64,000 bases of DNA from Nemertoderma westbladi (Eukaryota; Animalia; Xenacoelomorpha), in assembly GCA_032718475.1 (NCBI GenBank), contig JAUCBJ010006054.1, forward strand, positions 1 through 64,000, read 5' to 3'. This document shows, piece after piece, positions 2,828 to 64,000 of the stretch (positions are counted from its first letter, which is position 1; each line of letters opens with the position of its first letter). Position numbers and translations under genes: made by a program. The notes under the pieces are model-generated. The model saw only the letters and a program-made list of their open reading frames with translations, was not told the DNA's origin and ran no database searches.

Positions 2828-2876
2828 GGTGGTGGGAGAAATTTTTAAATAAAGCGGTGACGGATTTAAGTAAATG

Positions 2877-3963: not shown

Positions 3964-4016
3964 CTAAATAAAATTAAACCTATTTGGTTATATATAATAA
4001 TTATACGAAGTATCAA

Positions 4017-4694: not shown

Positions 4695-4719
4695 CTGTAG
4701 AAATACAATGTAAAGTGGT

Positions 4720-5735
4720 AAACGTACACAATTAATTTAAATATGGATCAAACGTAAACAATTAATTTCAAAATGGATCAAACGTACACAATTAATTTCA
4801 ATATGGATCAAACGTACACAATTAATTTCAATATGGATCAAACGTAAACAATTAATTTCAATATGGATCAAACGTACACAATTAATTTAAATATGGATCA
4901 AACGTACACAATTAATTTCAATATGGATGAAACGTACACAATTAATTTCAATATGGATCAAACGTACACAATTAACTTCAATATGGATCAAAAGTACACA
5001 ATTAATTTCAATATGGATCAAACGCACACAATTAATTTAAATATGGATCAAACGTACACAATTAATTTCAATATGGATGAAACGTACACAATTAATTTAA
5101 ATATGGATCAAACGTACACAATTAATTTCAATATGGATCAAACGTAAACAATTAATTTCAATATGGATCAAACGTACACAATTAATTTCAATATGGATCA
5201 AACGTACACAATTAATTTCAATATGGATCAAACGTACACAATTAATTTCAATATGGATCAAACGTACACAATTAATTTCAATATGGATCATACGTACACA
5301 ATTAATTTCAATATGAATTAAACGTAAACAATTAATTTCAATATGGATCAAAAGTACACAATTAATTTCAATATGGATCAAACGTACACAATTAATTTAA
5401 ATATGGATCAAACGTATACAATTAATTTCAATATGGATCAAACGTACACAGTTAATTTCAATATGGATCAAACGTAAACAATTAATTTCAATATGGATCA
5501 AACGTACACAGTTAATTTCAATAAGGATCAAACGTACACAATTAATTTCAATATGGATCAAACGTACACAATTAATTTCAATATGGATCAAACGTACACA
5601 ATTAATTTCAATATGGATCAAACGTACACAATTAATTTTAATATGGATCAAACGTACACAATTAATTTAAATATGGATCAAACGTACACAATTAATTTCA
5701 ATATGGATCAAACGTACACAATTAATTTCAATATG
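4720..5735. repeat. 30-bp AT-rich tandem satellite, about 34 copies, intronic
   Basis: Unit AACGTACACAATTAATTTCAATATGGATCA with a strict 30-bp period and substitutions only. It ends about 25 nt from the splice acceptor at 4695. Confidence 0.98.
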
Positions 5736-5958
5736 TATCTTGAATATCATTATTGTCATTCTGTACTTACGCCCCCAGCGGTAATATTTGAAGATACATG
5801 TATTATTGTACACCAAAATACTCCAATAGTATATACTTACAAAATAATAATTTGTAAGTGGACTATTTTAATGATGTTGATGGCCATTGGCCATATATGA
5901 GTTTATACAGTCTTAGTTGAAGTAACATGACCTTCCAGTAGCTATTTTCAAGAAATAG

Positions 5959-8900
5959 TGCCATCAGCAAACATAGCTATGTACTAATGAACGCGCGATC
6001 AGCTCCAAATGTCAATGTACTAATAAACACGTACCATCAGCTCAAATAACAATGTACTAATAAACACGTACCATCAGCTCTAAATATCATGTATTAATAA
6101 ACACGTACCATCAGCTCCAAATATCATGTATTAATAAACACGTACCATCAGCTCCAAATAACAATGTACTAATAAACACGTACCATCAGCTCAAATAACA
6201 ATGTACTAATAAACACGTACCATCAGCTCCAAATAACAATGTACTAATAAACACGTACCATCAGCTCCAAATATCAATGTACTAATAAACACGTACCATC
6301 AGCTCCAAATATCATGTATTAATAAACACGTACCATCAGCTCCAAATGTCAATGTACTAATAAACACGTACCATCAGCTCCAAATATCAATGTACTAATA
6401 AACACGTACCATCAGCTCCAAATATAATGTATTAATAAACACGTACCATCAGCTCTAAATATCAATGTACTAATAAACACGTGCCATCAGCTCCAAATAA
6501 CATGTATTAATAAACACGTACCATCAGCTCCAAATATCATGTATTAATAAACACGTACCATCAGCTCCAAATAACAATGTACTAATAAACACGTACCATC
6601 AGCTCCAAATAACAATGTACTAATAAACACGTACCATCAGCTCCAAATAACAATGTACTAATGAACACGTACCATCAGCTCCAAATAACAATGTACTAAT
6701 AAACACGTACCATCAGCTCCAAATATCAATGTACTAATAAACGTACCATCAGCTCCAAATAACAATGTACTAATAAACACGTACCATCAGCTCCAAATAA
6801 CAATGTACTAATAAACGTATCATCAGCTCCAAATAACAATGTACTAATAAACACGTACCATCAGCTCCAAATAGCAATGTACTAATAAACACGTACCATC
6901 AGCTCCAAATAACAATGTACTAATAAACACGTACCATCAGCTCCATATAACAATGTACTAATAAACACGTACCATCAGCTCCAAATAACAATGTACTAAT
7001 AAACACGTACCATCAGCTCCAAATAACAATGTACTAATAAACACGTACCATCAGCTCCAAATATCAATGTACTAATAAACGTACCATCAGCTCCAAATAA
7101 CAATGTACTAATAAACACGTACCATCAGCTCCAAATATCAATGTACTAATAAACGTACCATCAGCTCCAAATAACAATGTACTAATAAACACGTACCATC
7201 AGCTCAAAATAACAATGTACTAATAAACACGTACCATCAGCTCCAAATAACAATGTACTAATAAACACGTACCATCAGCTCCAAATAACAATGTACTAAT
7301 AAACACGTACCATCAGCTCCAAATAACAATGTACTAATAAACACGTACCATCAGCTCCAAATAACAATGTACTAATAAACACGTACCATCAGCTCCAAAT
7401 AACAATGTACTAATAAACACGTACCATCAGCTCCAAATATCAATGTACTAATAAACGTACCATCAGCTCCAAATAACAATGTACTAATAAACACGTACCA
7501 TCAGCTCCAAATAACAATGTACTAATAAACACGTACCATCAGCTCCAAATAACAATGTACTAATAAACACGTACCATCAGCTCCAAATAACAATGTACTA
7601 ATAAACACGTACCATCAGCTCCAAATAACAATGTACTAATAAACACGTACCATCAGCTCCAAATAACAATGTACTAATAAACACGTACCATCAGCTCCAA
7701 ATAACAATATACTAATAAACACGTACCATCAGCTCCAAATAACAATGTACTAATAAACACGTACCATCAGCTCCAAATAACAATGTACTAATAAAAGTAT
7801 CATCAGCTCCAAATAACAATGTACTAATAAACACGTACCATCAGCTCCAAATAACAATGTACTAATAAACACGTACCATCAGCTCCAAATATCAATGTAC
7901 TAATAAACGTACCATCAGCTCCAAATAACAATGTACTAATAAACACGTACCATCAGCTCTAAATATCAATGTACTAATAAACACGTGCCATCAGCTCCAA
8001 ATAACATGTATTAATAAACACGTACCATCAGCTCCAAATATCATGTATTAATAAACACGTACCATCAGCTCCAAATAACAATGTACTAATAAACACGTAC
8101 CATCAGCTCCAAATAACAATGTACTAATAAACACGTACCATCAGCTCCAAATAACAATGTACTAATGAACACGTACCATCAGCTCCAAATAACAATGTAC
8201 TAATAAACACGTACCATCAGCTCCAAATATCAATGTACTAATAAACGTACCATCAGCTCCAAATAACAATGTACTAATAAACACGTACCATCAGCTCCAA
8301 ATAACAATGTACTAATAAACGTATCATCAGCTCCAAATAACAATGTACTAATAAACACGTACCATCAGCTCCAAATAGCAATGTACTAATAAACACGTAC
8401 CATCAGCTCCAAATAACAATGTACTAATAAACACGTACCATCAGCTCCATATAACAATGTACTAATAAACACGTACCATCAGCTCCAAATAACAATGTAC
8501 TAATAAACACGTACCATCAGCTCCAAATAACAATGTACTAATAAACACGTACCATCAGCTCCAAATATCAATGTACTAATAAACGTACCATCAGCTCCAA
8601 ATAACAATGTACTAATAAACACGTACCATCAGCTCCAAATATCAATGTACTAATAAACGTACCATCAGCTCCAAATAACAATGTACTAATAAACACGTAC
8701 CATCAGCTCAAAATAACAATGTACTAATAAACACGTACCATCAGCTCCAAATAACAATGTACTAATAAACACGTACCATCAGCTCCAAATAACAATGTAC
8801 TAATAAACACGTACCATCAGCTCCAAATAACAATGTACTAATAAACACGTACCATCAGCTCCAAATAACAATGTACTAATAAACACGTACCATCAGCTCC

Positions 8901-11900
8901 AAATAACAATGTACTAATAAACACGTACCATCAGCTCCAAATATCAATGTACTAATAAACGTACCATCAGCTCCAAATAACAATGTACTAATAAACACGT
9001 ACCATCAGCTCCAAATAACAATGTACTAATAAACACGTACCATCAGCTCCAAATAACAATGTACTAATAAACACGTACCATCAGCTCCAAATAACAATGT
9101 ACTAATAAACACGTACCATCAGCTCCAAATAACAATGTACTAATAAACACGTACCATCAGCTCCAAATAACAATGTACTAATAAACACGTACCATCAGCT
9201 CCAAATAACAATATACTAATAAACACGTACCATCAGCTCCAAATAACAATGTACTAATAAACACGTACCATCAGCTCCAAATAACAATGTACTAATAAAA
9301 GTATCATCAGCTCCAAATAACAATGTACTAATAAACACGTACCATCAGCTCCAAATAACAATGTACTAATAAACACGTACCATCAGCTCCAAATATCAAT
9401 GTACTAATAAACGTACCATCAGCTCCAAATAACAATGTACTAATAAACACGTTCCATCAGCTCCAAATAACAATGTACTAATAAACACGTACCATCAGCT
9501 CCAAATAACAATGTACTAATAAACGTACCATCAGCTCCAAATAACAATGTACTAATAAACACGTACCATCAGCTCCAAATATCATGTATTAATAAACACG
9601 TACCATCAGCTCCAAATAACAATGTACTAATAAACGTACCATCAGCTCCAAATAACATGTATTAATAAACACGTACCATCAGCTCCAAATATCAATGTAC
9701 TAATAAACGTACCATCAGCTCCAAATAACAATGTACTAATAAACACGTACCATCAGCTCCAAATATCAATGTACTAATAAAAGTATCATCAGCTCCAAAT
9801 AACAATGTATTAATAAACACGTACCATCAGCTCCAAATAACAATGTACTAATAAACACGTACCATCAGCTCCAAATAACAATGTACTAATAAACACGTAC
9901 CATCAGCTCAAATAACAATGTACTAATAAACGTACCATCAGCTCCAAATAACAATGTACTAATAAACGTACCATCAGCTCCAAATAACAATGTACTAATA
10001 AACACGTACCATCAGCTCCAAATATCAATGTACTAATAAAAGTATCATCAGCTCCAAATAACAATGTATTAATAAACACGTACCATCAGCTCCAAATATC
10101 AATGTACTAATAAACGTACCATCAGCTCCAAATAACATGTATTAATAAACACGTACCATCAGCTCCAAATATCAATGTACTAATAAACGTACCATCAGCT
10201 CCAAATATCATGTATTAATAAACACGTACCATCAGCTCCAAATAACAATGTACTAATAAACGTACCATCAGCTCCAAATAACAATGTACTAATAAACACG
10301 TACCATCAGCTCCAAATATCATGTATTAATAAACACGTACCATCAGCTCCAAATATCATGTATTAATAAACGTACCATCAGCTCCAAATATCAATGTACT
10401 AATAAACGTACCATCAGCTCCAAATAACAATGTACTAATAAACGTACCATCAGCTCCAAATATCATGTACTAATAAACACGTACCATCAGCTCCAAATAT
10501 CATGTATTAATAAACACGTACCATCAGCTCCAAATAACAATGTACTAATAAACGTACCATCAGCTCCAAATAACATGTATTAATAAACACGTACCATCAG
10601 CTCCAAATAACAATGTACTAATAAACACGTACCATCAGCTCCAAATAACATGTATTAATAAACACGTACCATCAGCTCCAAATAACAATGTACTAATAAA
10701 CGTACCATCAGCTCCAAATAACATGTATTAATAAACACGTACCATCAGCTCCAAATATCATGTATTAATAAACACGTACCATCAGCTCCAAATATCATGT
10801 ATTAATAAACACGTACCATCAGCTCCAAATATCATGTACTAATAAACACGTACCATCAGCTCCAAATATCATGTATTAATAAACACGTACCATCAGCTCC
10901 AAATATCATGTACTAATAAACACGTACCATCAGCTCCAAATAACAATGTACTAATAAACACGTACCATCAGCTCCAAATAACATGTATTAATAAACACGT
11001 ACCATCAGCTCCAAATAACAATGTACTAATAAACACGTACCATCAGCTCCAAATAACATGTATTAATAAACACGTACCATCAGCTCCAAATAACAATGTA
11101 CTAATAAACGTACCATCAGCTCCAAATAACATGTATTAATAAACACGTACCATCAGCTCCAAATATCATGTATTAATAAACACGTACCATCAGCTCCAAA
11201 TATCATGTATTAATAAACACGTACCATCAGCTCCAAATATCATGTACTAATAAACACGTACCATCAGCTCCAAATAACAATGTACTAATAAACGTACCAT
11301 CAGCTCCAAATATCATGTATTAATAAACACGTACCATCAGCTCCAAATAACAATGTACTAATAAACACGTACCATCAGCTCCAAATAACAATGTACTAAT
11401 AAACACGTACCATCAGCTCCAAATAACAATGTACTAATAAACACGTTCCATCAGCTCCAAATAACAATGTACTAATAAACACGTACCATCAGCTCCAAAT
11501 AACAATGTACTAATAAACGTACCATCAGCTCCAAATAACAATGTACTAATAAACGTACCATCAGCTCCAAATAACAATGTACTAATAAACACGTACCATC
11601 AGCTCCAAATAACAATGTACTAATAAACACGTACCATCAGCTCCAAATAACAATGTACTAATAAACACGTACCATCAGCTCCAAATAACAATGTACTAAT
11701 AAACGTACCATCAGCTCCAAATAACAATGTACTAATAAACGTACCATCAGCTCCAAATAACAATGTACTAATAAACACGTACCATCAGCTCCAAATAACA
11801 ATGTACTAATAAACACGTACCATCAGCTCCAAATAACAATGTACTAATAAACACGTACCATCAGCTCCAAATAACAATGTACTAATAAACACGTTCCATC

Positions 11901-14900
11901 AGCTCTAAATATCATGTATTAATAAACACGTACCATCAGCTCCAAATATCAATGTACTAATAAACGTACCATCAGCTCCAAATAACAATGTACTAATAAA
12001 CGTACCATCAGCTCCAAATAACATGTATTAATAAACACGTACCATCAGCTCCAAATATCATGTATTAATAAACACGTACCATCAGCTCCAAATAACAATG
12101 TACTAATAAACGTACCATCAGCTCCAAATAACATGTATTAATAAACACGTACCATCAGCTCCAAATATCATGTATTAATAAACACGTACCATCAGCTCCA
12201 AATAACAATGTACTAATAAACACGTACCATCAGCTCCAAATAACAATGTACTAATAAACACGTACCATCAGCTCCAAATAACAATGTACTAATAAACACG
12301 TACCATCAGCTCCAAATAACAATGTACTAATAAACACGTACCATCAGCTCCAAATAACAATGTACTAATAAACACGTACCATCAGCTCCAAATAACAATG
12401 TACTAATAAACACGTACCATCACCTCCAAATATCATGTATTAATAAACACGTACCATCAGCTCCAAATAACAATGTACTAATAAACACGTACCATCAGCT
12501 CCAAATAACAATGTACTAATAAACACGTACCATCAGCTCCAAATAACAATGTACTAATAAACACGTACCATCAGCTCCAAATAACAATGTACTAATAAAC
12601 ACGTACCATCAGCTCCAAATAACAATGTACTAATAAACGTACCATCAGCTCCAAATAACAATGTACTAATAAACGTACCATCAGCTCCAAATAACAATGT
12701 ACTAATAAACACGTACCATCAGCTCCAAATAACAATGTACTAATAAACACGTACCATCAGCTCCAAATAACAATGTACTAATAAACACGTACCATCAGCT
12801 CCAAATAACAATGTACTAATAAACACGTTCCATCAGCTCTAAATATCATGTATTAATAAACACGTACCATCAGCTCCAAATATCATGTATTAATAAACAC
12901 GTACCATCAGCTCCAAATATCATGTATTAATAAACACGTACCATCAGCTCCAAATATCATGTATTAATAAACACGTACCATCAGCTCCAAATATCATGTA
13001 TTAATAAACACGTACCATCAGCTCCAAATATCATGTATTAATAAACACGTACCATCAGCTCCAAATATCATGTATTAATAAACACGTACCATCAGCTCCA
13101 AATATCATGTATTAATAAACACGTACCATCAGCTCCAAATAACAATGTACTAATAAACACGTACCATCAGCTCCAAATAACAATGTACTAATAAACACGT
13201 ACCATCAGCTCCAAATAACAATGTACTAATAAACACGTACCATCAGCTCCAAATAACAATGTACTAATAAACGTACCATCAGCTCCAAATAACAATGTAC
13301 TAATAAACGTACCATCAGCTCCAAATAACAATGTACTAATAAACACGTACCATCAGCTCCAAATAACAATGTACTAATAAACACGTACCATCAGCTCCAA
13401 ATATCAATGTACTAATAAACGTACCATCAGCTCCAAATAACAATGTACTAATAAACGTACCATCAGCTCCAAATAACATGTATTAATAAACACGTACCAT
13501 CAGCTCCAAATATCATGTATTAATAAACACGTACCATCAGCTCCAAATAACAATGTACTAATAAACGTACCATCAGCTCCAAATAACATGTATTAATAAA
13601 CACGTACCATCAGCTCCAAATATCATGTATTAATAAACACGTACCATCAGCTCCAAATAACAATGTACTAATAAACACGTACCATCAGCTCCAAATAACA
13701 ATGTACTAATAAACACGTACCATCAGCTCCAAATAACAATGTACTAATAAACACGTACCATCAGCTCCAAATATCATGTATTAATAAACACGTACCATCA
13801 GCTCCAAATAACAATGTACTAATAAACACGTACCATCAGCTCCAAATAACAATGTACTAATAAACACGTACCATCAGCTCCAAATATCATGTATTAATAA
13901 ACACGTACCATCAGCTCCAAATAACAATGTACTAATAAACACGTACCATCAGCTCCAAATAACAATGTACTAATAAACGTACCATCAGCTCCAAATAACA
14001 ATGTACTAATAAACGTACCATCAGCTCCAAATATCATGTATTAATAAACACGTACCATCAGCTCCAAATAACAATGTACTAATAAACACGTACCATCAGC
14101 TCCAAATAACAATGTACTAATAAACGTACCATCAGCTCCAAATAACAATGTACTAATAAACACGTACCATCAGCTCCAAATAACAATGTACTAATAAACG
14201 TTCCATCAGCTCCAAATATCATGTATTAATAAACACGTTCCATCAGCTCCAAATAACAATGTACTATTAAACGTACCATCAGCTCCAAATATCAATGTAC
14301 AAATAAACACGTACCATCAGCTCCAAATAACAATGTACTAATAAACGTACCATCAGCTCCAAATAACAATGTACTAATAAACGTACCATCAGCTCCAAAT
14401 AACAATGTACTAATAAACGTACCATCAGCTCCAAATAACAATGTACTAATAAACACGTACCATCAGCTCCAAATATCATGTATTAATAAACACGTACCAT
14501 CAGCTCCAAATAACAATGTACTAATAAACACGTACCATCAGCTCCAAATAACAATGTACTAATAAACGTACCATCAGCTCCAAATAACATGTATTAATAA
14601 ACACGTACCATCAGCTCCAAATATCATGTATTAATAAACACGTACCATCAGCTCCAAATAACAATGTACTAATAAACACGTACCATCAGCTCCAAATAAC
14701 AATGTACTAATAAACGTACCATCAGCTCCAAATAACAATGTACTAATAAACGTACCATCAGCTCCAAATAACAATGTACTAATAAACGTACCATCAGCTC
14801 CAAATAACATGTACTAATAAACACGTACCATCAGCTCCAAATAACATGTATTAATAAACACGTACCATCAGCTCCAAATATCATGTATTAATAAACACGT

Positions 14901-17900
14901 ACCATCAGCTCCAAATAACAATGTACTAATAAACACGTACCATCAGCTCCAAATAACAAAGTACTAATAAACACGTACCATCAGCTCCAAATATCATGTA
15001 TTAATAAACGTACCATCAGCTCCAAATAACAATGTACTAATAAACACGTACCATCAGCTCCAAATATCATGTATTAATAAACACGTACCATCAGCTCCAA
15101 ATAACAATGTACTAATAAACACGTACCATCAGCTCCAAATAACAATATACTAATAAACACGTACCATCAGCTCCAAATAACAATGTACTAATAAACACGT
15201 ACCATCAGCTCCAAATAACAATGTACTAATAAACACGTACCATCAGCTCCAAATAACAATGTACTAATAAACACGTACCATCAGCTCCAAATAACAATGT
15301 ACTAATAAACACGTACCATCAGCTCCAAATAACAATGTACTAATAAACACGTACCATCAGCTCCAAATAACAATGTACTAATAAACACGTTCCATCAGCT
15401 CCAAATAACAATGTACTAATAAACACGTACCATCAGCTCCAAATAACAATGTACTAATAAACACGTACCATCAGCTCCAAATAACAATGTACTAATAAAC
15501 GTACCATCAGCTCCAAATAACAATGTACTAATAAACACGTACCATCAGCTCCAAATAACAATGTACTAATAAACACGTACCATCAGCTCCAAATAACAAT
15601 GTACTAATAAACGTACCATCAGCTCCAAATAACAATGTACTAATAAACACGTACCATCAGCTCCAAATAACAATGTACTAATAAACGTACCATCAGCTCC
15701 AAATAACAATGTACTAATAAACGTACCATCAGCTCCAAATATCATGTATTAATAAACGTACCATCAGCTCCAAATAACAATGTACTAATAAACACGTACC
15801 ATCAGCTCCAAATATCATGTATTAATAAACGTACCATCAGCTCCAAATAACAATGTACTAATAAACACGTACCATCAGCTCCAAATAACAATGTACTAAT
15901 AAACACGTACCATCAGCTCCAAATAACAATGTACTAATAAACACGTACCATCAGCTCCAAATAACAATGTACTAATAAACACGTACCATCAGCTCCAAAT
16001 AACAATGTACTAATAAACACGTACCATCAGCTCCAAATATCATGTATTAATAAACACGTACCATCAGCTCCAAATAACAATGTACTAATAAACGTACCAT
16101 CAGCTCCAAATAACAATGTACTAATAAACACGTTCCATCAGCTCCAAATATCATGTACTAATAAACACGTACCATCAGCTCCAAATAACAATGTACTAAT
16201 AAACACGTACCATCAGCTCCAAATAACAATGTACTAATAAACGTACCATCAGCTCCAAATAACAATGTACTAATAAACACGTACCATCAGCTCCAAATAT
16301 CAATGTACTAATAAACACGTACCATCAGCTCCAAATAACAATGTACTAATAAACGTACCATCAGCTCCAAATAACATGTATTAATAAACACGTACCATCA
16401 GCTCCAAATATCATGTATTAATAAACACGTACCATCAGCTCCAAATATCATGTATTAATAAATACGTACCATCAGCTCCAAATATCAATGTACTAATAAA
16501 CACGTACCATCAGCTCCAAATATCAATGTACTAATAAACACGTACCATCAGCTCCAAATATCAATGTACTAATAAACGTACCATCAGCTCCAAATAACAA
16601 TGTACTAATAAACGTACCATCAGCTCCAAATAACAATGTACTAATAAACGTACCATCAGCTCCAAATGTCAATGTACTAATAAACACGTACCATCAGCTC
16701 CAAATATCATGTATTAATAAACGTACCATCAGCTCCAAATATCATGTATTAATAAACACGTACCATCAGCTCCAAATATCATGTATTAATAAACACGTAC
16801 CATCAGCTCCAAATATCATGTATTAATAAACACGTACCATCAGCTCCAAATAACAATGTACTAATAAACGTACCATCAGCTCCAAATAACAATGTACTAA
16901 TAAACACGTACCATCAGCTCCAAATAACAATGTACTAATAAACACGTACCATCAGCTCCAAATAACAATGTACTAATAAACGTACCATCAGCTCCAAATA
17001 ACAATGTACTAATAAACACGTACCATCAGCTCCAAATAACAATGTACTAATAAACACGTACCATCAGCTCCAAATATCATGTATTAATAAACGTACCATC
17101 AGCTCCAAATATCATGTATTAATAAACACGTACCATCAGCTCCAAATATCATGTATTAATAAACACGTACCATCAGCTCCAAATATCATGTATTAATAAA
17201 CACGTACCATCAGCTCCAAATAACAATGTACTAATAAACGTACCATCAGCTCCAAATAACAATGTACTAATAAACACGTACCATCAGCTCCAAATAACAA
17301 TGTACTAATAAACACGTACCATCAGCTCCAAATAACAATGTACTAATAAACGTACCATCAGCTCCAAATAACAATGTACTAATAAACGTACCATCAGCTC
17401 CAAATAACAATGTACTAATAAACACGTACCATCAGCTCCAAATAACAATGTACTAATAAACACGTACCATCAGCTCCAAATAACAATGTACTAATAAACA
17501 CGTACCATCAGCTCCAAATAACAATGTACTAATAAACGTACCATCAGCTCCAAATAACAATGTACTAATAAACGTACCATCAGCTCCAAATAACATGTAT
17601 TAATAAACACGTACCATCAGCTCCAAATAACAATGTACTAATAAACGTACCATCAGCTCCAAATAACAATGTACTAATAAACACGTACCATCAGCTCCAA
17701 ATAACAATGTACTAATAAACACGTACCATCAGCTCCAAATATCATGTATTAATAAACACGTACCATCAGCTCCAAATAACAATGTACTAATAAACACGTA
17801 CCATCAGCTCCAAATAACAATGTACTAATAAACACGTACCATCAGCTCCAAATAACAATGTACTAATAAACACGTACCATCAGCTCCAAATATCATGTAT

Positions 17901-20900
17901 TAATAAACACGTACCATCAGCTCCAAATAACAATGTACTAATAAACACGTACCATCAGCTCCAAATAACAATGTACTAATAAACACGTACCATCAGCTCC
18001 AAATAACAATGTACTAATAAACACGTACCATCAGCTCCAAATATCATGTATTAATAAACACGTACCATCAGCTCCAAATAACAATGTACTAATAAACACG
18101 TACCATCAGCTCCAAATAACAATGTATTAATAAACACGTACCATCAGCTCCAAATATCAATGTACTAATAAACGTACCATCAGCTCCAAATAACAATGTA
18201 CTAATAAACACGTACCATCAGCTCCAAATATCAATGTACTAATAAAAGTATCATCAGCTCCAAATAACAATGTATTAATAAACACGTACCATCAGCTCCA
18301 AATAACAATGTACTAATAAACGTACCATCAGCTCCAAATAACATGTATTAATAAACACGTACCATCAGCTCCAAATATCAATGTACTAATAAACGTACCA
18401 TCAGCTCCAAATAACATGTATTAATAAACACGTACCATCAGCTCCAAATATCAATGTACTAATAAACGTACCATCAGCTCCAAATATCATGTATTAATAA
18501 ACACGTACCATCAGCTCCAAATAACAATGTACTAATAAACGTACCATCAGCTCCAAATAACAATGTACTAATAAACACGTACCATCAGCTCCAAATAACA
18601 ATGTACTAATAAACGTACCATCAGCTCCAAATAACAATGTACTAATAAACACGTACCATCAGCTCCAAATATCATTGTACTAATAAACACGTACCATCAG
18701 CTCCAAATAACAATGTACTAATAAACGTACCATCAGCTCCAAATAACATGTATTAATAAACACGTACCATCAGCTCCAAATAACAATGTACTAATAAACA
18801 CGTACCATCAGCTCCAAATATCATGTATTAATAAACACGTACCATCAGCTCCAAATAACAATGTACTAATAAACACGTACCATCAGCTCCAAATAACAAT
18901 GTACTAATAAACGTACCATCAGCTCCAAATAACAATGTACTAATAAACACGTACCATCAGCTCCAAATATCATTGTACTAATAAACACGTACCATCAGCT
19001 CCAAATAACAATGTACTAATAAACGTACCATCAGCTCCAAATAACATGTATTAATAAACACGTACCATCAGCTCCAAATAACAATGTACTAATAAACACG
19101 TACCATCAGCTCCAAATATCATGTATTAATAAACACGTACCATCAGCTCCAAATAACAATGTACTAATAAACACGTACCATCAGCTCCAAATATCAATGT
19201 ACTAATAAACGTACCATCAGCTCCAAATAACAATGTACTAATAAACACGTTCCATCAGCTCCAAATAACAATGTACTAATAAACACGTACCATCAGCTCC
19301 AAATAACAATGTACTAATAAACGTACCATCAGCTCCAAATAACAATGTACTAATAAACACGTACCATCAGCTCCAAATATCAATGTACTAATAAACACGT
19401 ACCATCAGCTCCAAATATCATGTATTAATAAACACGTACCATCAGCTCCAAATAACAATGTACTAATAAACGTACCATCAGCTCCAAATAACATGTATTA
19501 ATAAACACGTACCATCAGCTCCAAATAACAATGTACTAATAAACACGTACCATCAGCTCCAAATAACAATGTACTAATAAACGTACCATCAGCTCCAAAT
19601 AACAATGTACTAATAAACACGTACCATCAGCTCCAAATAACAATGTACTAATAAACACGTACCATCAGCTCCAAATAACAATGTACTAATAAACACGTAC
19701 CATCAGCTCCAAATAACAATGTACTAATAAACACGTACCATCAGCTCCAAATAACAATGTACTAATAAACACGTACCATCAGCTCCAAATAACAATGTAC
19801 TAATAAACACGTACCATCAGCTCCAAATAACAATGTACTAATAAACGTACCATCAGCTCCAAATAACAATGTACTAATAAACGTACCATCAGCTCCAAAT
19901 AACAATGTACTAATAAACACGTACCATCAGCTCCAAATAACAATGTACTAATAAACACGTACCATCAGCTCCAAATAACAATGTACTAATAAACACGTAC
20001 CATCAGCTCCAAATAACAATGTACTAATAAACGTACCATCAGCTCCAAATAACAATGTACTAATAAACGTACCATCAGCTCCAAATAACATGTATTAATA
20101 AACACGTACCATCAGCTCCAAATAACAATGTACTAATAAACGTACCATCAGCTCCAAATAACAATGTACTAATAAACACGTACCATCAGCTCCAAATAAC
20201 AATGTACTAATAAACACGTACCATCAGCTCCAAATATCATGTATTAATAAACACGTACCATCAGCTCCAAATAACAATGTACTAATAAACACGTACCATC
20301 ATCTCCAAATAACAATGTACTAATAAACACGTACCATCAGCTCCAAATAACAATGTACTAATAAACACGTACCATCAGCTCCAAATATCATGTATTAATA
20401 AACACGTACCATCAGCTCCAAATAACAATGTACTAATAAACACGTACCATCAGCTCCAAATAACAATGTACTAATAAACACGTACCATCAGCTCCAAATA
20501 ACAATGTACTAATAAACACGTACCATCAGCTCCAAATATCATGTATTAATAAACACGTACCATCAGCTCCAAATAACAATGTACTAATAAACACGTACCA
20601 TCAGCTCCAAATAACAATGTATTAATAAACACGTACCATCAGCTCCAAATATCAATGTACTAATAAACGTACCATCAGCTCCAAATAACAATGTACTAAT
20701 AAACACATACCATCAGCTCCAAATAACAATGTACTAATAAACACGTACCATCAGCTCCAAATAACAATGTACTAATAAACACGTACCATCAGCTCCAAAT
20801 ATCAATGTATTAATAAACATGTACCATCAGCTCCAAATATCAATGTATTAATAAACACGTACCATCAGCTCTAAATATCATGTATTAATAAACACGTACC

Positions 20901-50900: not shown

Positions 50901-53900
50901 AACAATGTACTAATAAACACGTACCATCAGCTCCAAATAACAATGTACTATTAAACACGTACCATCAGCTCCAAATATCAATGTACTAATAAACATGTAC
51001 CATCAGCTCCAAATATCATGTATTAATAAACACGTACCATCAGCTCCAAATATAATGTATTAATAAACACGTACCATCAGCTCCAAATATAATGTATTAA
51101 TAAACACGTACCATCAGCTCCAAATATAATGTATTAATAAACACGTACCATCAGCTCCAAATATCATGTATTAATAAACACGTACCATCAGCTCCAAATA
51201 TCATGTATTAATAAACACGTACCATCAGCTCCAAATAACAATGTACTAATAAACACGTACCATCAGCTCCAAATATCATGTATTAATAAACACGTACCAT
51301 CAGCTCCAAATAACAATGTACTAATAAACACGTACCATCAGCTCCAAATAACAATGTACTAATAAACACGTACCATCAGCTCCAAATAACAATGTACTAA
51401 TAAACACGTACCATCAGCTCCAAATATCATGTATTAATAAACACGAACCATCAGCTCCAAATATAATGTATTAATAAACACGTACCATCAGCTCCAAATA
51501 TAATGTATTAATAAACACGTACCATCAGCTCCAAATATCATGTATTAATAAACACGTACCATCAGCTCCAAATATCATGTATTAATAAACACGTACCATC
51601 AGCTCCAAATAACAATGTACTAATAAACACGTACCATCAGCTCCAAATAACAATGTACTAATAAACACGTACCATCAGCTCCAAATATCAATGTACTAAT
51701 AAACGTACCATCAGCTCCAAATATCAATGTACTAATAAACACGTACCATCAGCTCCAAATATCAATGTACTAATAAACACGTACCATCAGCTCCAAATAA
51801 CAATGTACTAATAAACACGTACCATCAGCTCCAAATAACAATGTACTAATAAACACGTACCATCAGCTCCAAATAACAATGTACTAATAAACGTTCCATC
51901 AGCTCCAAATAACAATGTACTAATAAACGTACCATCAGCTCCAAATAACAATGTACTAATAAACACGTACCATCAGCTCCAAATATCAATGTACTAATAA
52001 ACACGTACCATCAGCTCCAAATATCATGTATTAATAAACACGTACCATCAGCTCCAAATATAATGTATTAATAAACACGTACCATCAGCTCCAAATATCA
52101 TGTATTAATAAACACGTACCATCAGCTCCAAATATAATGTATTAATAAACACGTACCATCAGCTCCAAATATCATGTATTAATAAACACGTACCATCAGC
52201 TCCAAATATCATGTATTAATAAACACGTACCATCGGCTCCAAATATAATGTATTAATAAACACGTACCATCAGCTCCAAATATCATGTATTAATAAACAC
52301 GTACCATCAGCTCCAAATATCATGTATTAATAAACACGTACCATCAGCTCCAAATATCAATGTACTAATAAACACGTACCATCAGCTCCAAATATCATGT
52401 ATTAATAAACACGTACCATCAGCTCCAAATATAATGTATTAATAAACACGTACCATCAGCTCCAAATATCATGTATTAATAAACACGTACCATCAGCTCC
52501 AAATATCATGTACTAATAAACACGTACCATCAGCTCCAAATAACAATGTACTAATAAACGTACCATCAGCTCCAAATAACAATGTACTAATAAACACGTA
52601 CCATCAGCTCCAAATATCATGTATTAATAAACACGTACCATCAGCTCCAAATAACAATGTACTAATAAACACGTACCATCAGCTCCAAATATCAATGTAC
52701 TAATAAACGTACCATCAGCTCCAAATAACAATGTACTAATAAACACGTTCCATCAGCTCCAAATAACAATGTACTAATAAACACGTACCATCAGCTCCAA
52801 ATAACAATGTACTAATAAACGTACCATCAGCTCCAAATAACAATGTACTAATAAACACGTACCATCAGCTCCAAATAACAATGTACTAATAAACACGTAC
52901 CATCAGCTCCAAATAACAATGTACTAATAAACGTTCCATCAGCTCCAAATAACAATGTACTAATAAACGTACCATCAGCTCCAAATAACAATGTACTAAT
53001 AAACACGTACCATCAGCTCCAAATATCATGTATTAATAAACACGTACCATCAGCTCCAAATAACAATGTACTAATAAACGTACCATCAGCTCCAAATATC
53101 AATGTACTAATAAACACGTACCATCAGCTCCAAATATCATGTATTAATAAACACGTACCATCAGCTCCAAATATCATGTATTAATAAACACGTACCATCA
53201 GCTCCAAATATCATGTATTAATAAACACGTACCATCAGCTCCAAATATCATGTATTAATAAACACGTACCATCAGCTCCAAATATCATGTATTAATAAAC
53301 ACGTACCATCAGCTCCAAATAACAATGTACTAATAAACACGTACCATCAGCTCCAAATAACAATGTACTAATAAACGTTCCATCAGCTCCAAATAACAAT
53401 GTACTAATAAATGTACCATCAGCTCCAAATAACAATGTACTAATAAACACGTACCATCAGCTCCAAATATCATGTATTAATAAACACGTACCATCAGCTC
53501 CAAATAACAATGTACTAATAAACACGTACCATCAGCTCCAAATAACAATGTACTAATAAACGTTCCATCAGCTCCAAATAACAATGTACTAATAAACGTA
53601 CCATCAGCTCCAAATAACAATGTACTAATAAACACGTACCATCAGCTCCAAATATCATGTATTAATAAACACGTACCATCAGCTCCAAATAACAATGTAC
53701 TAATAAACACGTACCATCAGCTCCAAATAACAATGTACTAATAAACGTTCCATCAGCTCCAAATAACAATGTACTAATAAACGTACCATCAGCTCCAAAT
53801 AACAATGTACTAATAAACACGTACCATCAGCTCCAAATATCATGTATTAATAAACACGTACCATCAGCTCCAAATAACAATGTACTAATAAACGTACCAT

Positions 53901-56900
53901 CAGCTCCAAATATCAATGTACTAATAAACACGTACCATCAGCTCCAAATATCATGTATTAATAAACACGTACCATCAGCTCCAAATATCATGTATTAATA
54001 AACACGTACCATCAGCTCCAAATATCATGTATTAATAAACACGTACCATCAGCTCCAAATAACAATGTACTAATAAACACGTACCATCAGCTCCAAATAT
54101 CAATGTACTAATAAACGTACCATCAGCTCCAAATAACAATGTACTAATAAACACGTTCCATCAGCTCCAAATAACAATGTACTAATAAACACGTACCATC
54201 AGCTCCAAATAACAATGTACTAATAAACGTACCATCAGCTCCAAATAACAATGTACTAATAAACACGTACCATCAGCTCCAAATATCATGTATTAATAAA
54301 CACGTACCATCAGCTCCAAATAACAATGTACTAATAAACGTACCATCAGCTCCAAATAACAATGTACTAATAAACACGTACCATCAGCTCCAAATAACAA
54401 TGTACTAATAAACACGTACCATCAGCTCCAAATATCAATGTACTAATAAACACGTACCATCAGCTCCAAATATCATGTATTAATAAACACGTACCATCAG
54501 CTCCAAATATCATGTATTAATAAACACGTACCATCAGCTCCAAATAACAATGTACTAATAAACGTATCATCAGCTCCAAATAACATGTACTAATAAACGT
54601 ACCATCAGCTCCAAATAACAATGTACTAATAAACGTATCATCAGCTCCAAATAACAATGTACTAATAAACACGTACCATCAGCTCCAAATAACAATGTAC
54701 TAATAAACGTACCATCAGCTCCAAATAACAATGTACTAATAAACACGTACCATCAGCTCCAAATATCATGTATTAATAAACACGTACCATCATCTCCAAA
54801 TAACAATGTACTAATAAACGTACCATCAGCTCCAAATAACAATGTACTAATAAACGTACCATCAGCTCCAAATAACAATGTACTAATAAACACGTTCCAT
54901 CAGCTCCAAATATCATGTATTAATAAACACGTACCATCAGCTCCAAATATCATGTATTAATAAACACGTACCATCAGCTCCAAATAACAATGTACTAATA
55001 AACGTACCATCAGCTCCAAATAACAATGTACTAATAAACGTACCATCAGCTCCAAATAACAATGTACTAATAAACACGTTCCATCAGCTCCAAATAACAA
55101 TGTACTAATAAACGTACCATCAGCTCCAAATAACAATGTACTAATAAACGTACCATCAGCTCCAAATAACAATGTACTAATAAACACGTACCATCAGCTC
55201 CAAATAACAATGTACTAATAAACGTACCATCAGCTCCAAATATCATGTATTAATAAACACGTACCATCAGCTCCAAATATCATGTATTAATAAACACGTA
55301 CCATCAGCTCCAAATAACAATGTACTAATAAACACGTACCATCAGCTCCAAATATCAATGTACTAATAAACGTACCATCAGCTCCAAATAACAATGTACT
55401 AATAAACACGTACCATCAGCTCCAAATATCAATGTACTAATAAACGTACCATCAGCTCCAAATAACAATGTACTAATAAACACGTTCCATCAGCTCCAAA
55501 TAACAATGTACTAATAAACACGTACCATCAGCTCCAAATATCATGTATTAATAAACACGTACCATCAGCTCCAAATATCATGTATTAATAAACACGTACC
55601 ATCAGCTCCAAATATCATGTATTAATAAACACGTACCATCAGCTCCAAATATCATGTATTAATAAACACGTACCATCAGCTCCAAATAACAATGTACTAA
55701 TAAACACGTACCATCAGCTCCAAATATCATGTATTAATAAACACGTACCATCAGCTCCAAATATCATGTATTAATAAACACGTACCATCAGCTCCAAATA
55801 TCAATGTACTAATAAACACGTACCATCAGCTCCAAATATCAATGTACTAATAAACGTACCATCAGCTCCAAATAACAATGTACTAATAAACACGTTCCAT
55901 CAGCTCCAAATAACAATGTACTAATAAACACGTACCATCAGCTCCAAATATCATGTATTAATAAACACGTACCATCAGCTCCAAATATCATGTATTAATA
56001 AACACGTACCATCAGCTCCAAATATCATGTATTAATAAACACGTACCATCAGCTCCAAATATCATGTATTAATAAACACGTACCATCAGCTCCAAATAAC
56101 AATGTACTAATAAACACATACCATCAGCTCCAAATATCAATGTACTAATAAACGTACCATCAGCTCCAAATAACAATGTACTAATAAACACGTTCCATCA
56201 GCTCCAAATAACAATGTACTAATAAACACGTACCATCAGCTCCAAATAACAATGTACTAATAAACGTACCATCAGCTCCAAATAACAATGTACTAATAAA
56301 CACGTACCATCAGCTCCAAATATCATGTATTAATAAACACGTACCATCAGCTCCAAATAACAATGTACTAATAAACGTACCATCAGCTCCAAATAACAAT
56401 GTACTAATAAACACGTACCATCAGCTCCAAATAACAATGTACTAATAAACACGTACCATCAGCTCCAAATATCAATGTACTAATAAACACGTACCATCAG
56501 CTCCAAATAACAATGTACTAATAAACGTACCATCAGCTCCAAATAACAATGTACTAATAAACGTACCATCAGCTCCAAATAACAATGTACTAATAAACAC
56601 GTTCCATCAGCTCCAAATAACAATGTACTAATAAACGTACCATCATCTCCAAATAACAATGTACTAATAAACACGTACCATCAGCTCCAAATAACAATGT
56701 ACTAATAAACACGTACCATCAGCTCCAAATATCATGTATTAATAAACGTACCATCAGCTCCAAATAACAATGTACTAATAAACGTACCATCAGCTCCAAA
56801 TAACAATGTACTAATAAACGTACCATCATCTCCAAATAACAATGTACTAATAAACACGTACCATCAGCTCCAAATAACAATGTACTAATAAACGTACCAT

Positions 56901-59900
56901 CAGCTCCAAATAACAATGTACTAATAAACGTACCATCAGCTCCAAATAACAATGTACTAATAAACGTTCCATCAGCTCCAAATAACAATGTACTAATAAA
57001 CGTACCATCATCTCCAAATAACAATGTACTAATAAACACGTACCATCAGCTCCAAATAACAATGTACTAATAAACGTACCATCAGCTCCAAATAACAATG
57101 TACTAATAAACGTACCATCAGCTCCAAATAACAATGTACTAATAAACGTACCATCAGCTCCAAATAACAATGTACTAATAAACACGTACCATCAGCTCCA
57201 AATATCATGTATTAATAAACACGTACCATCAGCTCCAAATAACAATGTACTAATAAACGTACCATCAGCTCCAAATAACAATGTACTAATAAACACGTAC
57301 CATCAGCTCCAAATAACAATGTACTAATAAACACGTACCATCAGCTCCAAATATCAATGTACTAATAAACACGTACCATCAGCTCCAAATAACAATGTAC
57401 TAATAAACGTACCATCAGCTCCAAATAACAATGTACTAATAAACGTACCATCAGCTCCAAATAACAATGTACTAATAAACACGTACCATCAGCTCCAAAT
57501 ATCATGTATTAATAAACACGTACCATCAGCTCCAAATATCATGTATTAATAAACACGTACCATCAGCTCCAAATAACAATGTACTAATAAACACGTACCA
57601 TCAGCTCCAAATATCATGTATTAATAAACACGTACCATCAGCTCCAAATATCAATGTACTAATAAACGTACCATCAGCTCCAAATAACAATGTACTAATA
57701 AACACGTACCATCAGCTCCAAATAACAATGTACTAATAAACACGTTCCATCAGCTCCAAATAACAATGTACTAATAAACGTACCATCATCTCCAAATAAC
57801 AATGTACTAATAAACACGTACCATCAGCTCCAAATATCATGTATTAATAAACACGTACCATCAGCTCCAAATAACAATGTACTAATAAACACGTTCCATC
57901 AGCTCCAAATAACAATGTACTAATAAACGTACCATCATCTCCAAATAACAATGTACTAATAAACACGTACCATCAGCTCCAAATATCATGTATTAATAAA
58001 CACGTACCATCAGCTCCAAATAACAATGTACTAATAAACGTACCATCAGCTCCAAATAACAATGTACTAATAAACGTACCATCAGCTCCAAATGTCAATG
58101 TACTAATAAACACGTACCATCAGCTCCAAATATCATGTATTAATAAACGTACCATCAGCTCCAAATATCATGTATTAATAAACACGTACCATCAGCTCCA
58201 AATAACAATGTACTAATAAACGTACCATCAGCTCCAAATAACAATGTACTAATAAACACGTACCATCAGCTCCAAATAACAATGTACTAATAAACACGTA
58301 CCATCAGCTCCAAATAACAATGTACTAATAAACACGTACCATCAGCTCCAAATATCAATGTACTAATAAACGTACCATCAGCTCCAAATAACAATGTACT
58401 AATAAACACGTACCATCAGCTCCAAATATCAATGTACTAATAAAAGTATCATCAGCTCCAAATAACAATGTACTAATAAACACGTACCATCAGCTCCAAA
58501 TATCATGTATTAATAAACACGCACCATCAGCTCCAAATAACAATGTACTATTAAACACGTACCATCAGCTCCAAATAACAATGTACTAATAAACACGTAC
58601 CATCAGCTCCAAATAACAATGTACTAATAAACACGTACCATCAGCTCCAAATATCAATGTACTAATAAACGTACCATCAGCTCCAAATAACAATGTACTA
58701 ATAAACACGTACCATCAGCTCCAAATATCAATGTACTAATAAAAGTATCATCAGCTCCAAATAACAATGTACTAATAAACACGTACCATCAGCTCCAAAT
58801 AACAATGTACTAATAAACACGTACCATCAGCTCCAAATATCAATGTACTAATAAACACGTACCATCAGCTCCAAATATCATGTATTAATAAACACGTACC
58901 ATCAGCTCCAAATATCATGTATTAATAAACACGTACCATCAGCTCCAAATATAATGTATTAATAAACACGTACCATCAGCTCCAAATATCATGTATTAAT
59001 AAACACGTACCATCAGCTCCATATAACAATGTACTAATAAACACGTACCATCAGCTCCAAATATCATGTATTAATAAACACGTACCATCAGCTCCAAATA
59101 ACAATGTACTAATAAACACGTACCATCAGCTCCAAATATCAATGTACTAATAAACGTACCATCAGCTCCAAATAACAATGTACTAATAAACACGTTCCAT
59201 CAGCTCCAAATAACAATGTACTAATAAACGTACCATCAGCTCCAAATAACAATGTACTAATAAACACGTACCATCAGCTCCAAATAACAATGTACTAATA
59301 AACACGTACCATCAGCTCCAAATAACAATGTACTAATAAACACGTACCATCAGCTCCAAATATCAATGTACTAATAAACGTACCATCAGCTCCAAATAAC
59401 AATGTACTAATAAACACGTACCATTAGCTCCAAATATCAATGTACTAATAAAAGTATCATCAGCTCCAAATAACAATGTACTAATAAACACGTACCATCA
59501 GCTCCAAATATCATGTATTAATAAACACGCACCATCAGCTCCAAATAACAATGTACTATTAAACACGTACCATCAGCTCCAAATAACAATGTACTAATAA
59601 ACACGTACCATCAGCTCCAAATAACAATGTACTAATAAACACGTACCATCAGCTCCAAATATCAATGTACTAATAAACGTACCATCAGCTCCAAATAACA
59701 ATGTACTAATAAACACGTACCATCAGCTCCAAATATCAATGTACTAATAAAAGTATCATCAGCTCCAAATAACAATGTACTAATAAACACGTACCATCAG
59801 CTCCAAATATCATGTATTAATAAACACGTACCATCAGCTCCAAATAACAATGTACTAATAAACACGTACCATCAGCTCCAAATATCAATGTACTAATAAA

Positions 59901-62900
59901 CGTACCATCAGCTCCAAATAACAATGTACTAATAAACACGTTCCATCAGCTCCAAATAACAATGTACTAATAAACGTACCATCAGCTCCAAATAACAATG
60001 TACTAATAAACACGTACCATCAGCTCCAAATAACAATGTACTAATAAACACGTACCATCAGCTCCAAATAACAATGTACTAATAAACACGTACCATCAGC
60101 TCCAAATATCAATGTACTAATAAACGTACCATCAGCTCCAAATAACAATGTACTAATAAACACGTACCATCAGCTCCAAATATCAATGTACTAATAAAAG
60201 TATCATCAGCTCCAAATAACAATGTACTAATAAACACGTACCATCAGCTCCAAATATCATGTATTAATAAACACGCACCATCAGCTCCAAATAACAATGT
60301 ACTATTAAACACGTACCATCAGCTCCAAATATCAATGTACTAATAAACGTACCATCAGCTCCAAATAACAATGTACTAATAAACACGTACCATCAGCTCC
60401 AAATATCAATGTACTAATAAACGTACCATCAGCTCCAAATAACAATGTACTAATAAACACGTACCATCAGCTCCAAAAATCAATGTACTAATAAAAGTAT
60501 CATTAGCTCCAAATAACAATGTACTAATAAACACGTACCATCAGCTCCAAATATCATGTATTAATAAACACGCACCATCAGCTCCAAATAACAATGTACT
60601 ATTAAACACGTACCATCAGCTCCAAATAACAATGTACTAATAAACACGTACCATCAGCTCCAAATATCAATGTACTAATAAAAGTATCATCAGCTCCAAA
60701 TAACAATGTACTAATAAACACGTACCATCAGCTCCAAATATCATGTATTAATAAACACGCACCATCAGCTCCAAATAACAATGTACTAATAAACACGTAC
60801 CATCAGCTCCAAATAACAATGTACTAATAAACACGTACCATCAGCTCCAAATAACAATGTACTAATAAACACGTACCATCAGCTCCAAATAACAATGTAC
60901 TAATAAACACGTACCATCAGCTCCAAATAACAATGTACTAATAAACGTACCATCAGCTCCAAATAACAATGTACTAATAAACACGTACCATCAGCTCCAA
61001 ATATCATGTATTAATAAACACGTACCATCAGCTCCAAATAACAATGTACTAATAAACACGTACCATCAGCTCCAAATAACAATGTACTAATAAACACGTA
61101 CCATCAGCTCCAAATATCATGTATTAATAAACACGTACCATCAGCTCCAAATAACAATGTACTAATAAACGTACCATCAGCTCCAAATAACAATGTACTA
61201 ATAAACACGTACCATCAGCTCCAAATATCATGTATTAATAAACACGTACCATCAGCTCCAAATAACAATGTACTAATAAACACGTACCATCAGCTCCAAA
61301 TATCAATGTACTAATAAACGTACCATCAGCTCCAAATAACAATGTACTAATAAACACGTTCCATCAGCTCCAAATAACAATGTACTAATAAACACGTACC
61401 ATCAGCTCCAAATATCATGTATTAATAAACACGTACCATCAGCTCCAAATAACAATGTACTAATAAACGTACCATCAGCTCCAAATAACAATGTACTAAT
61501 AAACACGTACCATCAGCTCCAAATATCATGTATTAATAAACACGTACCATCAGCTCCAAATAACAATGTACTAATAAACACGTACCATCAGCTCCAAATA
61601 TCAATGTACTAATAAACGTACCATCAGCTCCAAATAACAATGTACTAATAAACACGTTCCATCAGCTCCAAATAACAATGTACTAATAAACACGTACCAT
61701 CAGCTCCAAATATCATGTATTAATAAACACGTTCCATCAGCTCCAAATAACAATGTACTAATAAACACGTACCATCAGCTCCAAATATCAATGTACTAAT
61801 AAACGTACCATCAGCTCCAAATAACAATGTACTAATAAACACGTTCCATCAGCTCCAAATAACAATGTACTAATAAACGTACCATCAGCTCCAAATAACA
61901 ATGTACTAATAAACACGTACCATCAGCTCCAAATAACAATGTACTAATAAACACGTACCATCAGCTCCAAATAACAATGTACTAATAAACACGTACCATC
62001 AGCTCCAAATATCAATGTACTAATAAACGTACCATCAGCTCCAAATAACAATGTACTAATAAACACGTACCATCAGCTCCAAATATCAATGTACTAATAA
62101 AAGTATCATCAGCTCCAAATAACAATGTACTAATAAACACGTACCATCAGCTCCAAATATCATGTATTAATAAACACGCACCATCAGCTCCAAATAACAA
62201 TGTACTATTAAACACGTACCATCAGCTCCAAATATCAATGTACTAATAAACGTACCATCAGCTCCAAATAACAATGTACTAATAAACACGTACCATCAGC
62301 TCCAAATATCAATGTACTAATAAACGTACCATCAGCTCCAAATAACAATGTACTAATAAACACGTACCATCAGCTCCAAAAATCAATGTACTAATAAAAG
62401 TATCATTAGCTCCAAATAACAATGTACTAATAAACACGTACCATCAGCTCCAAATATCATGTATTAATAAACACGCACCATCAGCTCCAAATAACAATGT
62501 ACTATTAAACACGTACCATCAGCTCCAAATAACAATGTACTAATAAACACGTACCATCAGCTCCAAATATCAATGTACTAATAAAAGTATCATCAGCTCC
62601 AAATAACAATGTACTAATAAACACGTACCATCAGCTCCAAATATCATGTATTAATAAACACGCACCATCAGCTCCAAATAACAATGTACTAATAAACACG
62701 TACCATCAGCTCCAAATAACAATGTACTAATAAACACGTACCATCAGCTCCAAATAACAATGTACTAATAAACACGTACCATCAGCTCCAAATAACAATG
62801 TACTAATAAACACGTACCATCAGCTCCAAATAACAATGTACTAATAAACGTACCATCAGCTCCAAATAACAATGTACTAATAAACACGTACCATCAGCTC

Positions 62901-64000
62901 CAAATATCATGTATTAATAAACACGTACCATCAGCTCCAAATAACAATGTACTAATAAACACGTACCATCAGCTCCAAATAACAATGTACTAATAAACAC
63001 GTACCATCAGCTCCAAATATCATGTATTAATAAACACGTACCATCAGCTCCAAATAACAATGTACTAATAAACGTACCATCAGCTCCAAATAACAATGTA
63101 CTAATAAACACGTACCATCAGCTCCAAATATCATGTATTAATAAACACGTACCATCAGCTCCAAATAACAATGTACTAATAAACACGTACCATCAGCTCC
63201 AAATATCAATGTACTAATAAACGTACCATCAGCTCCAAATAACAATGTACTAATAAACACGTTCCATCAGCTCCAAATAACAATGTACTAATAAACACGT
63301 ACCATCAGCTCCAAATATCATGTATTAATAAACACGTACCATCAGCTCCAAATAACAATGTACTAATAAACGTACCATCAGCTCCAAATAACAATGTACT
63401 AATAAACACGTACCATCAGCTCCAAATATCATGTATTAATAAACACGTACCATCAGCTCCAAATAACAATGTACTAATAAACACGTACCATCAGCTCCAA
63501 ATATCAATGTACTAATAAACGTACCATCAGCTCCAAATAACAATGTACTAATAAACACGTTCCATCAGCTCCAAATAACAATGTACTAATAAACACGTAC
63601 CATCAGCTCCAAATATCATGTATTAATAAACACGTTCCATCAGCTCCAAATAACAATGTACTAATAAACACGCACCATCAGCTCCAAATATCATGTATTA
63701 ATAAACACGTACCATCAGCTCCAAATAACAATGTATTAATAAACACGTACCATCAGCTCTAAATATCATGTATTAATAAACACGTACCATCAGCTCTAAA
63801 TATCATGTATTAATAAACACGTACCATCAGCTCCAAATATCATGTATTAATAAACACGTACCATCAGCTCCAAATAACAATGTACTAATAAACACGTACC
63901 ATCAGCTCCAAATATCATGTATTAATAAACACGTACCATCAGCTCCAAATAACAATGTACTAATGAACACGTACCATCAGCTCCAAATATCAATGTACTA
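5959..64000. repeat. Large 36-38 bp satellite array (about 1,550 monomers, continuing beyond the window), apparently derived from an exon-intron junction of the RIN/sprint gene
   Basis: Consensus GTACCATCAGCTCCAAATAACAATGTACTAATAAAC(AC). Recurrent variants TAACAAT/TATCAAT/TATCAT/TATAAT, GTACT/GTATT and presence or absence of AC. Two degenerate units at 5959-6030. No unique spacers or insertions seen. Copy number estimated as length divided by about 37.3. Confidence 0.99.

Follow-up and report, generated by a model that had tools for sequence, protein, structure and literature searches.

Host exons and flanking repeats

The window analyzed here, a 64,000-nt stretch of Nemertoderma westbladi DNA (contig JAUCBJ010006054.1, positions 1 to 64,000), carries two consecutive coding exons on its minus strand, a minisatellite in each of the two introns that border the first of them, and a tandem array that runs through the upstream intron to the end of the window. 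The exon at 4694-4551 (minus strand, 144 nt, phase 1 at both borders) begins with E-F-L-P, is immediately preceded by AG and directly followed by GT, and matches the C-terminal half of the VPS9 domain (Pfam PF02204, E 7e-9, profile positions 48-99 of 104), bearing out the VPS9 host proposed in an earlier sequence-only reading of this DNA. Aligned to a Sprint/RIN profile, its first residue is the second acidic residue of the motif G-A-D-D. The exon at 3963-3652 (minus strand, 312 nt) encodes the end of VPS9, a linker, and the first half of an RA domain (Pfam PF00788, E 1.6e-5). Both exons are free of stops, in phase, and collinear with the Sprint/RIN profile, and their splice sites are intact. 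With a VPS9 exon followed by an RA exon, the host gene is, as judged from these predicted domains, a member of the Sprint/RIN family of Rab5 GEFs; its SH2 and RIN1-like domains, if present, lie outside the window. The same profile did not find the final RA exon in 1-7000, and Rfam gave zero matches over the same interval.

The VPS9 exon is divergent. Its mean identity to 80 homologue exons is 50%, whereas those share 77% among themselves, and the conserved G-E-G-G-Y-Y is replaced by G-K-T-D-Y-Y. The proline and the Y-x-x-T that are critical in RINL are nevertheless retained within the exon, and the corresponding aspartate is seen in the repeat units only.

The minisatellite upstream of this exon (4720-5739, minus strand, 30 bp x 34) shares its intron with the main array and ends about 25 nt before the acceptor, and a second one, detected by repeat finding (4071-4317, 36 bp x 6.8), lies in the next intron. 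The last 33 nt of the upstream intron with its AG acceptor (4695-4727, minus strand) weakly resemble the intron-like part of the array unit, a similarity that is matched by only 18 of 20,000 local shuffles but by 21 of 60 flank-wide shuffles and is to be read as a lead only.

Structure of the array

Tandem Repeats Finder reports a single array at 5979-64000 with a period of 38 and 1,562 copies, and splitting it yields 1,562 units of 35, 36, 37, or 38 bp that fall into 62 unit types, with zero foreign insertions. The array measures at least 58 kb, as its right end runs past the window edge at 64000. Read on the minus strand, the homogeneous units of its main part (5997-64000) consist of the codons F-G-A-D and a single G, resembling an exon end, then a GT donor, and then intron-like sequence. 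On the gene's strand, 1,443 of the 1,561 units in 5997-64000 have all 13 nt of F-G-A-D-G intact with a GT behind them; about 6% of units have lost the GT donor. Two claims of the earlier reading, that the monomer reads G-A-D-G|GT in phase with the E-F-L-P exon at 4694 and that some 58 kb hold about 1,500 near-identical donors, are thereby confirmed. The units stand head to tail, most of them holding the 5' splice site in the orientation of the gene, as is characteristic of an exon-boundary minisatellite, and the part of the unit that is demonstrably exon-derived amounts to only about 13 nt. The unit pattern was absent from the viral contigs searched.

Internally, the array repeats runs of as many as 51 units without change at offsets of 0.5-5 kb (shuffles give 8-10 units), no identical block exceeds 1.9 kb, and the order of the 62 unit types is non-periodic. 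The share of rare unit variants is 22% at either end of the array within the window and 1-3% in its middle, resulting in a U-shaped heterogeneity. The left edge, which is the 3' edge in the gene's orientation, is not abrupt but fades through two degenerate relic units (5926-5996, minus strand; 5996-5962 with 27/36 identical columns and 5961-5926 with 24/38), and because of this fading the register of the unit cannot be fixed from the edge. The score of the second relic was equalled by 2 of 150 random flank starts. The relics have drifted by 25-37%, whereas the bulk consensus still has an intact G-A-D-G|GT.

Selection against decoy donors left no clear signal, with 9 distinct substitution alleles at the 13 exon-like positions and 21 at the other 25. 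Masking of the donors by RNA structure was rejected, as a 291-nt stretch of the array folds no better than its shuffles (z 0.31; 127 of 200 as good). Giant introns can be removed by recursive splicing through internal AG|GT ratchet points, but the consensus unit offers none, its two AGs preceding TAC and CTG rather than GT.

Origin of the unit and competing explanations

A full HMMER search with the 47-residue exon returned 35 protein matches (a word-index search gave 0 of 20 candidates), the best of which are spread over molluscs and arthropods at 47-57% identity. Of 25 homologous loci, 9 are interrupted by an intron at exactly the same codon and phase, its AG abutting the split D/E codon of D/E-F-L-P; the other 16 lack an intron at this codon. 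In 5 of those 9 loci the upstream exon ends in I/M/L-G-A-D-G|GTA, the introns being 180-2,083 nt long, and the array unit agrees in frame and phase with this expected exon end. The final D has no G-A-D in front of it in 13 of the 35 proteins, whose sequence resembles genomic read-through out of an intron at this position; in P0035 the read-through covers a short intron starting right after G-A-D-G. A hydrophobic residue stands before GAD in all but one of 110 homologue contexts (109, with F in 9), and for 108 of 113 homologues the loop ahead of GAD ranges from 15 to 51 residues and is mostly 20-26 long. The host shares with Sprint and RIN1-3 the order VPS9, then RA, and its intron within G-A-D|D/E-F-L-P has the phase seen in the 9 intron-bearing loci, but it differs in its divergence (at most 57% identity) and in an extra intron after the VPS9 exon, which is apparently common to P0016 and P0035.

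When the commonest monomer was shuffled 2,000,000 times, G-A-D-G|GT arose on the gene's strand in 53 shuffles (2.7e-5), 29 of them with a hydrophobic codon in front, and a looser pattern arose in 477. Because the position and phase of the intron are conserved in homologues, and given this shuffle test, the proposal made from the sequence that the unit arose by amplification of an exon end together with the host gene's own 5' splice site is strongly supported. The aspartate of the unit fits the catalytic Asp of VPS9, as the spacing between D and P (four residues apart) agrees. The earlier statement that the satellite encodes this residue needs narrowing, since only the first unit, and not the satellite as a whole, would encode it.

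The reading that we consider probable combines a satellite-sized repeat of the gene's own exon boundary, an intron of more than 59 kb, predicted use of the first donor, and a real upstream exon past 64000. The end of that exon and its donor would have been duplicated from the boundary and expanded into the intron some 1,560 times, presumably by unequal exchange with homogenization. The spliceosome is predicted to pick the first donor through exon definition and 5'-to-3' scanning, by analogy with human F7, and most mis-spliced products would be removed through their premature stops; of the 8,802 AG-to-GT pseudo-exons no longer than 300 nt, just 2 keep the frame and avoid a stop. The most likely role of the repeat is that of a tolerated passenger, not of a regulator.

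A unit taken from the exon end of a gene copy that is now dead or broken, whether a relic paralogue or a locus at which the array marks a breakpoint, would require no decoy splicing over 59 kb. The divergence of the VPS9 exon, the final RA exon not found in 1-7000, and the lack of an upstream exon in the window favor this account, but it is unlikely given two consecutive stop-free exons in phase with intact AG/GT borders, the critical residues kept in exon and unit, and a bulk consensus that stayed intact while the relics drifted, as would be expected if a selected exon still seeds the array. It is very improbable that an unrelated satellite was inserted and matches G-A-D-G|GT by chance, or that the assembly inflated the array. 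The match does cover only about 13 nt plus GT, and the unit's upstream codons Y-V-F-I agree with just 1, 1, 0, and 0 of 110 homologues; yet the chance of 2.7e-5 applies to the single intron in which the motif would be predicted, and the non-periodic order of the unit types, the 1.9-kb limit on identical blocks, and the U-shaped heterogeneity are better explained by a real array than by looping in the assembly.

An intact gene whose own donor recurs about 1,450 times in an intron of at least 59 kb might slip in splicing at a meaningful rate to in-frame 36-nt units, as in ABCA7, where one-unit retention and length-dependent splicing are described (PMC5954066, in the text covered), with other slips leading to nonsense-mediated decay and dosage tuning. 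A 36-nt slip would add 12 residues in frame and leave G-A-D directly before E-F-L-P, 384 of 1,463 donors allow a slip by one unit that keeps the frame and meets no stop, and the loop before GAD varies in length among homologues. Were this so, satellite copies would supply the catalytic aspartate and lengthen the preceding loop, and turnover of the array would edit the neighborhood of the active site or set gene dosage. We nonetheless regard it as improbable: a slip by one unit shifts the frame or runs into a stop in about 74% of cases, the outcome is set solely by the first one or two units, which lie outside the window, and the in-frame pseudo-sites of F7 go unused (PMC1557585). As for a complete 23-nt micro-exon amplified intact with both of its splice sites, a T-rich AG lies 23 nt before the donor in 1,168 units, and 18 nt upstream of this AG is a CTGAT that resembles the branch consensus. 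A short upstream exon does occur in some homologues (L022), but upstream exons in homologues are about 17 codons or longer, an intron 7 codons ahead of GAD is absent from all homologues examined, and a T-rich AG is frequent by chance in A+T-rich DNA, making a micro-exon hardly credible.

Known boundary repeats and the meaning of scale

Boundary repeats that carry donors have already been described, in the text covered of the sources cited here (PMC1557585, PMC5954066, PMC3087553), and the new element is scale. In human ABCA7, the intron 18 VNTR has a 25-bp unit in 12 to about 427 copies, extending up to 10.7 kb (PMC5954066). As far as that text goes, it resembles the Nemertoderma array in placing a tandem unit with an exon's splice donor over many kilobases of a coding gene, but it is smaller, the at least 1,562 copies over 58 kb here being at least 3.6 times its copy number, and it comes with transcript data on one-unit retention and exon skipping. 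Human F7 has a 37-bp VNTR of 5-9 copies in intron 7, close in unit size to the array, and IFI6, CBS, LMNB2, and PDGF are listed beside it with 10-25 copies (PMC1557585). The first F7 monomer spans the exon-intron boundary and is followed by identical donors, and the same text describes a test in F7 that showed use of the first donor, which for the array is predicted only. Exclusive use of the first donor is here an extrapolation to a far larger array, and ABCA7, IFI6, and CBS use downstream donors to some extent.

The "mirages" in the Adh3 and globin genes of amphioxus likewise arose, in an invertebrate, through tandem duplication of the borders between exon and intron, and their concerted evolution spares the edges, but they comprise 3-6 units in the globin cases reported in the text covered (PMC3087553) compared to more than 1,500 here. 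The giant Y-linked introns of Drosophila are also inflated by satellites, and co-transcriptional splicing is of importance there (PMC11207136, PMC6508621); they differ in being megabase-scale and germline-specific, and their satellites are not described as copies of the gene's own donor in the text covered. The literature consulted, mostly open-access main texts, mentions neither this array nor a larger one bearing donors.

Because the kind of element was already described, the gain lies in its scale and in its value as a test system rather than in a new mechanism. If the gene is live, one authentic donor would face, over at least 58 kb, about 1,450 identical donors together with 1,168 acceptor-like sites, and no natural test of first-come choice among 5' splice sites that we found would be more extreme; the locus would then also show directly that a satellite-scale array can arise from the boundary of a coding exon.

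Host gene and the exon beside the array

Preceded by AG and followed by GT, the exon at 4694-4551 (minus strand) opens with the final two bases of a Glu codon and goes on as F-L-P. It matches the Pfam VPS9 domain (E 7e-9) as well as structures of Rabex-5. The exon after it, 3963-3652 (minus strand), matches RA. A HMMER search returned 35 protein matches; VPS9 and RA were present in 12 of the 12 long ones scanned, where the named proteins are Sprint/RIN of molluscs and echinoderms. Both exons align end to end to a profile of 137 homologue regions (positions 224-271 and 273-356). The first D of A-D-D-F-L-P is presumably D313 of Rabex. D313 is the aspartate finger (PMC3919270), and the critical residues of RINL are D453/P457 and Y494/T497 (PMC3264577). 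The D of G-A-D is four residues ahead of the P, where the sequence-only reading had placed it. Some homologues (metagenome-contig loci L021, L023 and L025, and protein P0023) carry S-A-D-D in place of G-A-D-D.

It is possible that this gene copy is dead or broken, since its VPS9 exon is divergent (mean identity 50%, maximum 57%, to 80 homologue exons, versus 77% among the homologues themselves) and since a profile search of 1-7000 did not find the final RA exon (best E 4.6 or worse). A short frame at 3461-3393 (minus strand) resembles the missing RA continuation, L-A-x-D-x-C-P (E 6.9-8.6), without a visible in-phase acceptor.

Origin of the unit

On the minus strand, the unit ends with the codons of F-G-A-D and one G, followed by GTACGT, and F-G-A-D-G plus GT is intact in 1,443 of the 1,561 units within 5997-64000. 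The earlier description of unit and exon, with F-L-P onward after the AG, was accurate. The further proposal, that the unit is an amplified exon end, was examined at 25 of 26 metagenome-contig loci (L026, covering residues 18-47 only, was dropped). In nine of the 25, AG lies directly ahead of the split D/E codon, in the same phase as at 4694; the intron is absent in 16. Five of the nine (four distinct) have an upstream exon ending I/M/L-G-A-D-G|GTA; the introns there measure 180, 257, 373 and 2,083 nt. No such donor was found in the 151-1,451 nt searched at the remaining four. G-A-D is missing before the final D in 13 of the 35 protein matches, with S, V or A preceding the D in 12 of them, as intron read-through would give; the protein hit P0035 reads through a short intron beginning after G-A-D-G. 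Shuffled monomers contained G-A-D-G|GT in 53 of 2,000,000 cases. Conserved intron position and phase, together with the shuffles, make origin from the end of the upstream exon well supported.

In 109 of 110 homologue contexts a hydrophobic residue stands ahead of GAD (F in 9). The overall match is short: the unit's further-upstream residues Y-V-F-I match 1, 1, 0 and 0 of 110 homologues, indicating that ~13 nt, perhaps up to ~25, is exon-derived; the rest of the unit is probably intron.

Growth of the array and its surroundings

A single array of period 38 and 1,562 copies extends from 5979 to the window's right edge. Splitting on a fuzzy anchor gives units of 38 bp (732), 36 bp (443), 37 bp (352) and 35 bp (35), in 62 types averaging 1.56 edits from the commonest, without interruption. 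Blocks as long as 51 units are repeated identically 0.5-5 kb apart, versus 8-10 units in five shuffles; types beyond the eight commonest account for 22% of units in the first and in the last twelfth versus 1-3% near 25-35 kb; and the array fades at its left edge into degenerate relic units (27/36 and 24/38 columns identical). Together these features are consistent with the array being real, having grown locally and having expanded recently in its middle. Several rare unit types are common to both ends, and there are hints, without proof, that the far end lies not much past the window. If the upstream exon sits there, the intron measures at least 59,306 nt.

The same intron holds a 30-bp minisatellite. 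Together with the intron's last 33 nt it occupies 4695-5739 (minus strand), and both have GTACGTTT and a stretch ATTG..ATT in common with the 36-bp unit. This similarity was significant against local shuffles (18 of 20,000); flank-wide (21 of 60) it was not. It may mean that repeated duplication of a single short ancestral intron built up the whole intron. At 4071-4317 the next intron has a third minisatellite (36 bp x 6.8, G+C-rich), so that both introns seen in the window contain tandem repeats.

On the plus strand, opposite to the RA exon and downstream of it, lie two tightly packed intronless ORFs, at 1420-2301 (~293 aa) and 2383-2827 (~147 aa, acidic), with an imperfect direct repeat after them near 2877-3040. 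They resemble part of a virus-like or mobile element that has inserted here. The longer ORF had no relative by protein search, in viral contigs, in Atlas, or in Pfam above cut-off. The stretch ~240-662 (plus strand), which had no Pfam match, resembles a LINE reverse-transcriptase ORF at its 3' end, with a short (TAG)n tail behind it.

Scale and donor choice

This kind of element is already known. F7 has 5-9 copies and IFI6, CBS, LMNB2 and PDGF have 10-25 (PMC1557585), against at least 1,562 here. The ABCA7 25-bp VNTR likewise includes a donor, that of exon 18, and reaches ~427 copies and 10.7 kb (PMC5954066); the present array exceeds it at least 3.6-fold in copy number and 5.4-fold in length. 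Further examples are amphioxus mirages, an invertebrate case of boundary repeats (PMC3087553), and boundary repeats in human paralogues (PMC2812944). No larger donor-bearing array was found in the article texts searched. The array is real and its origin well supported; any function is putative.

The authentic donor is predicted to be transcribed first and to be the only one with a real exon upstream. Splicing of F7 takes the furthest upstream among identical donors even with others functional (PMC1557585), and by inference the same choice may extend to the array. Partial use of downstream donors in ABCA7, IFI6 and CBS (PMC1557585 and PMC5954066) counts against exclusive first-donor choice. The real donors at 4550-4545 (GTTTGT) and 3651-3646 (GTTGGA), both minus strand, match the usual consensus (PMC1557585) more poorly than the satellite's GTACGT. 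An RNA fold hiding the decoy donors was rejected, a 291-nt stretch having shown no special fold.

The array contains 1,168 T-rich AG sites. Among 8,802 AG-to-GT pairs of at most 300 nt, a length divisible by three occurs in 2,352 and just 2 are stop-free, so nearly all pseudo-exons would contain stops. If splicing slipped to the next donor, the frame would hold and no stop would intervene for 384 of 1,463 donors. The loop before GAD spans 15-51 residues in 108 of 113 homologues; should such a slip happen, the loop would gain 12 residues, with G-A-D still adjoining E-F-L-P.
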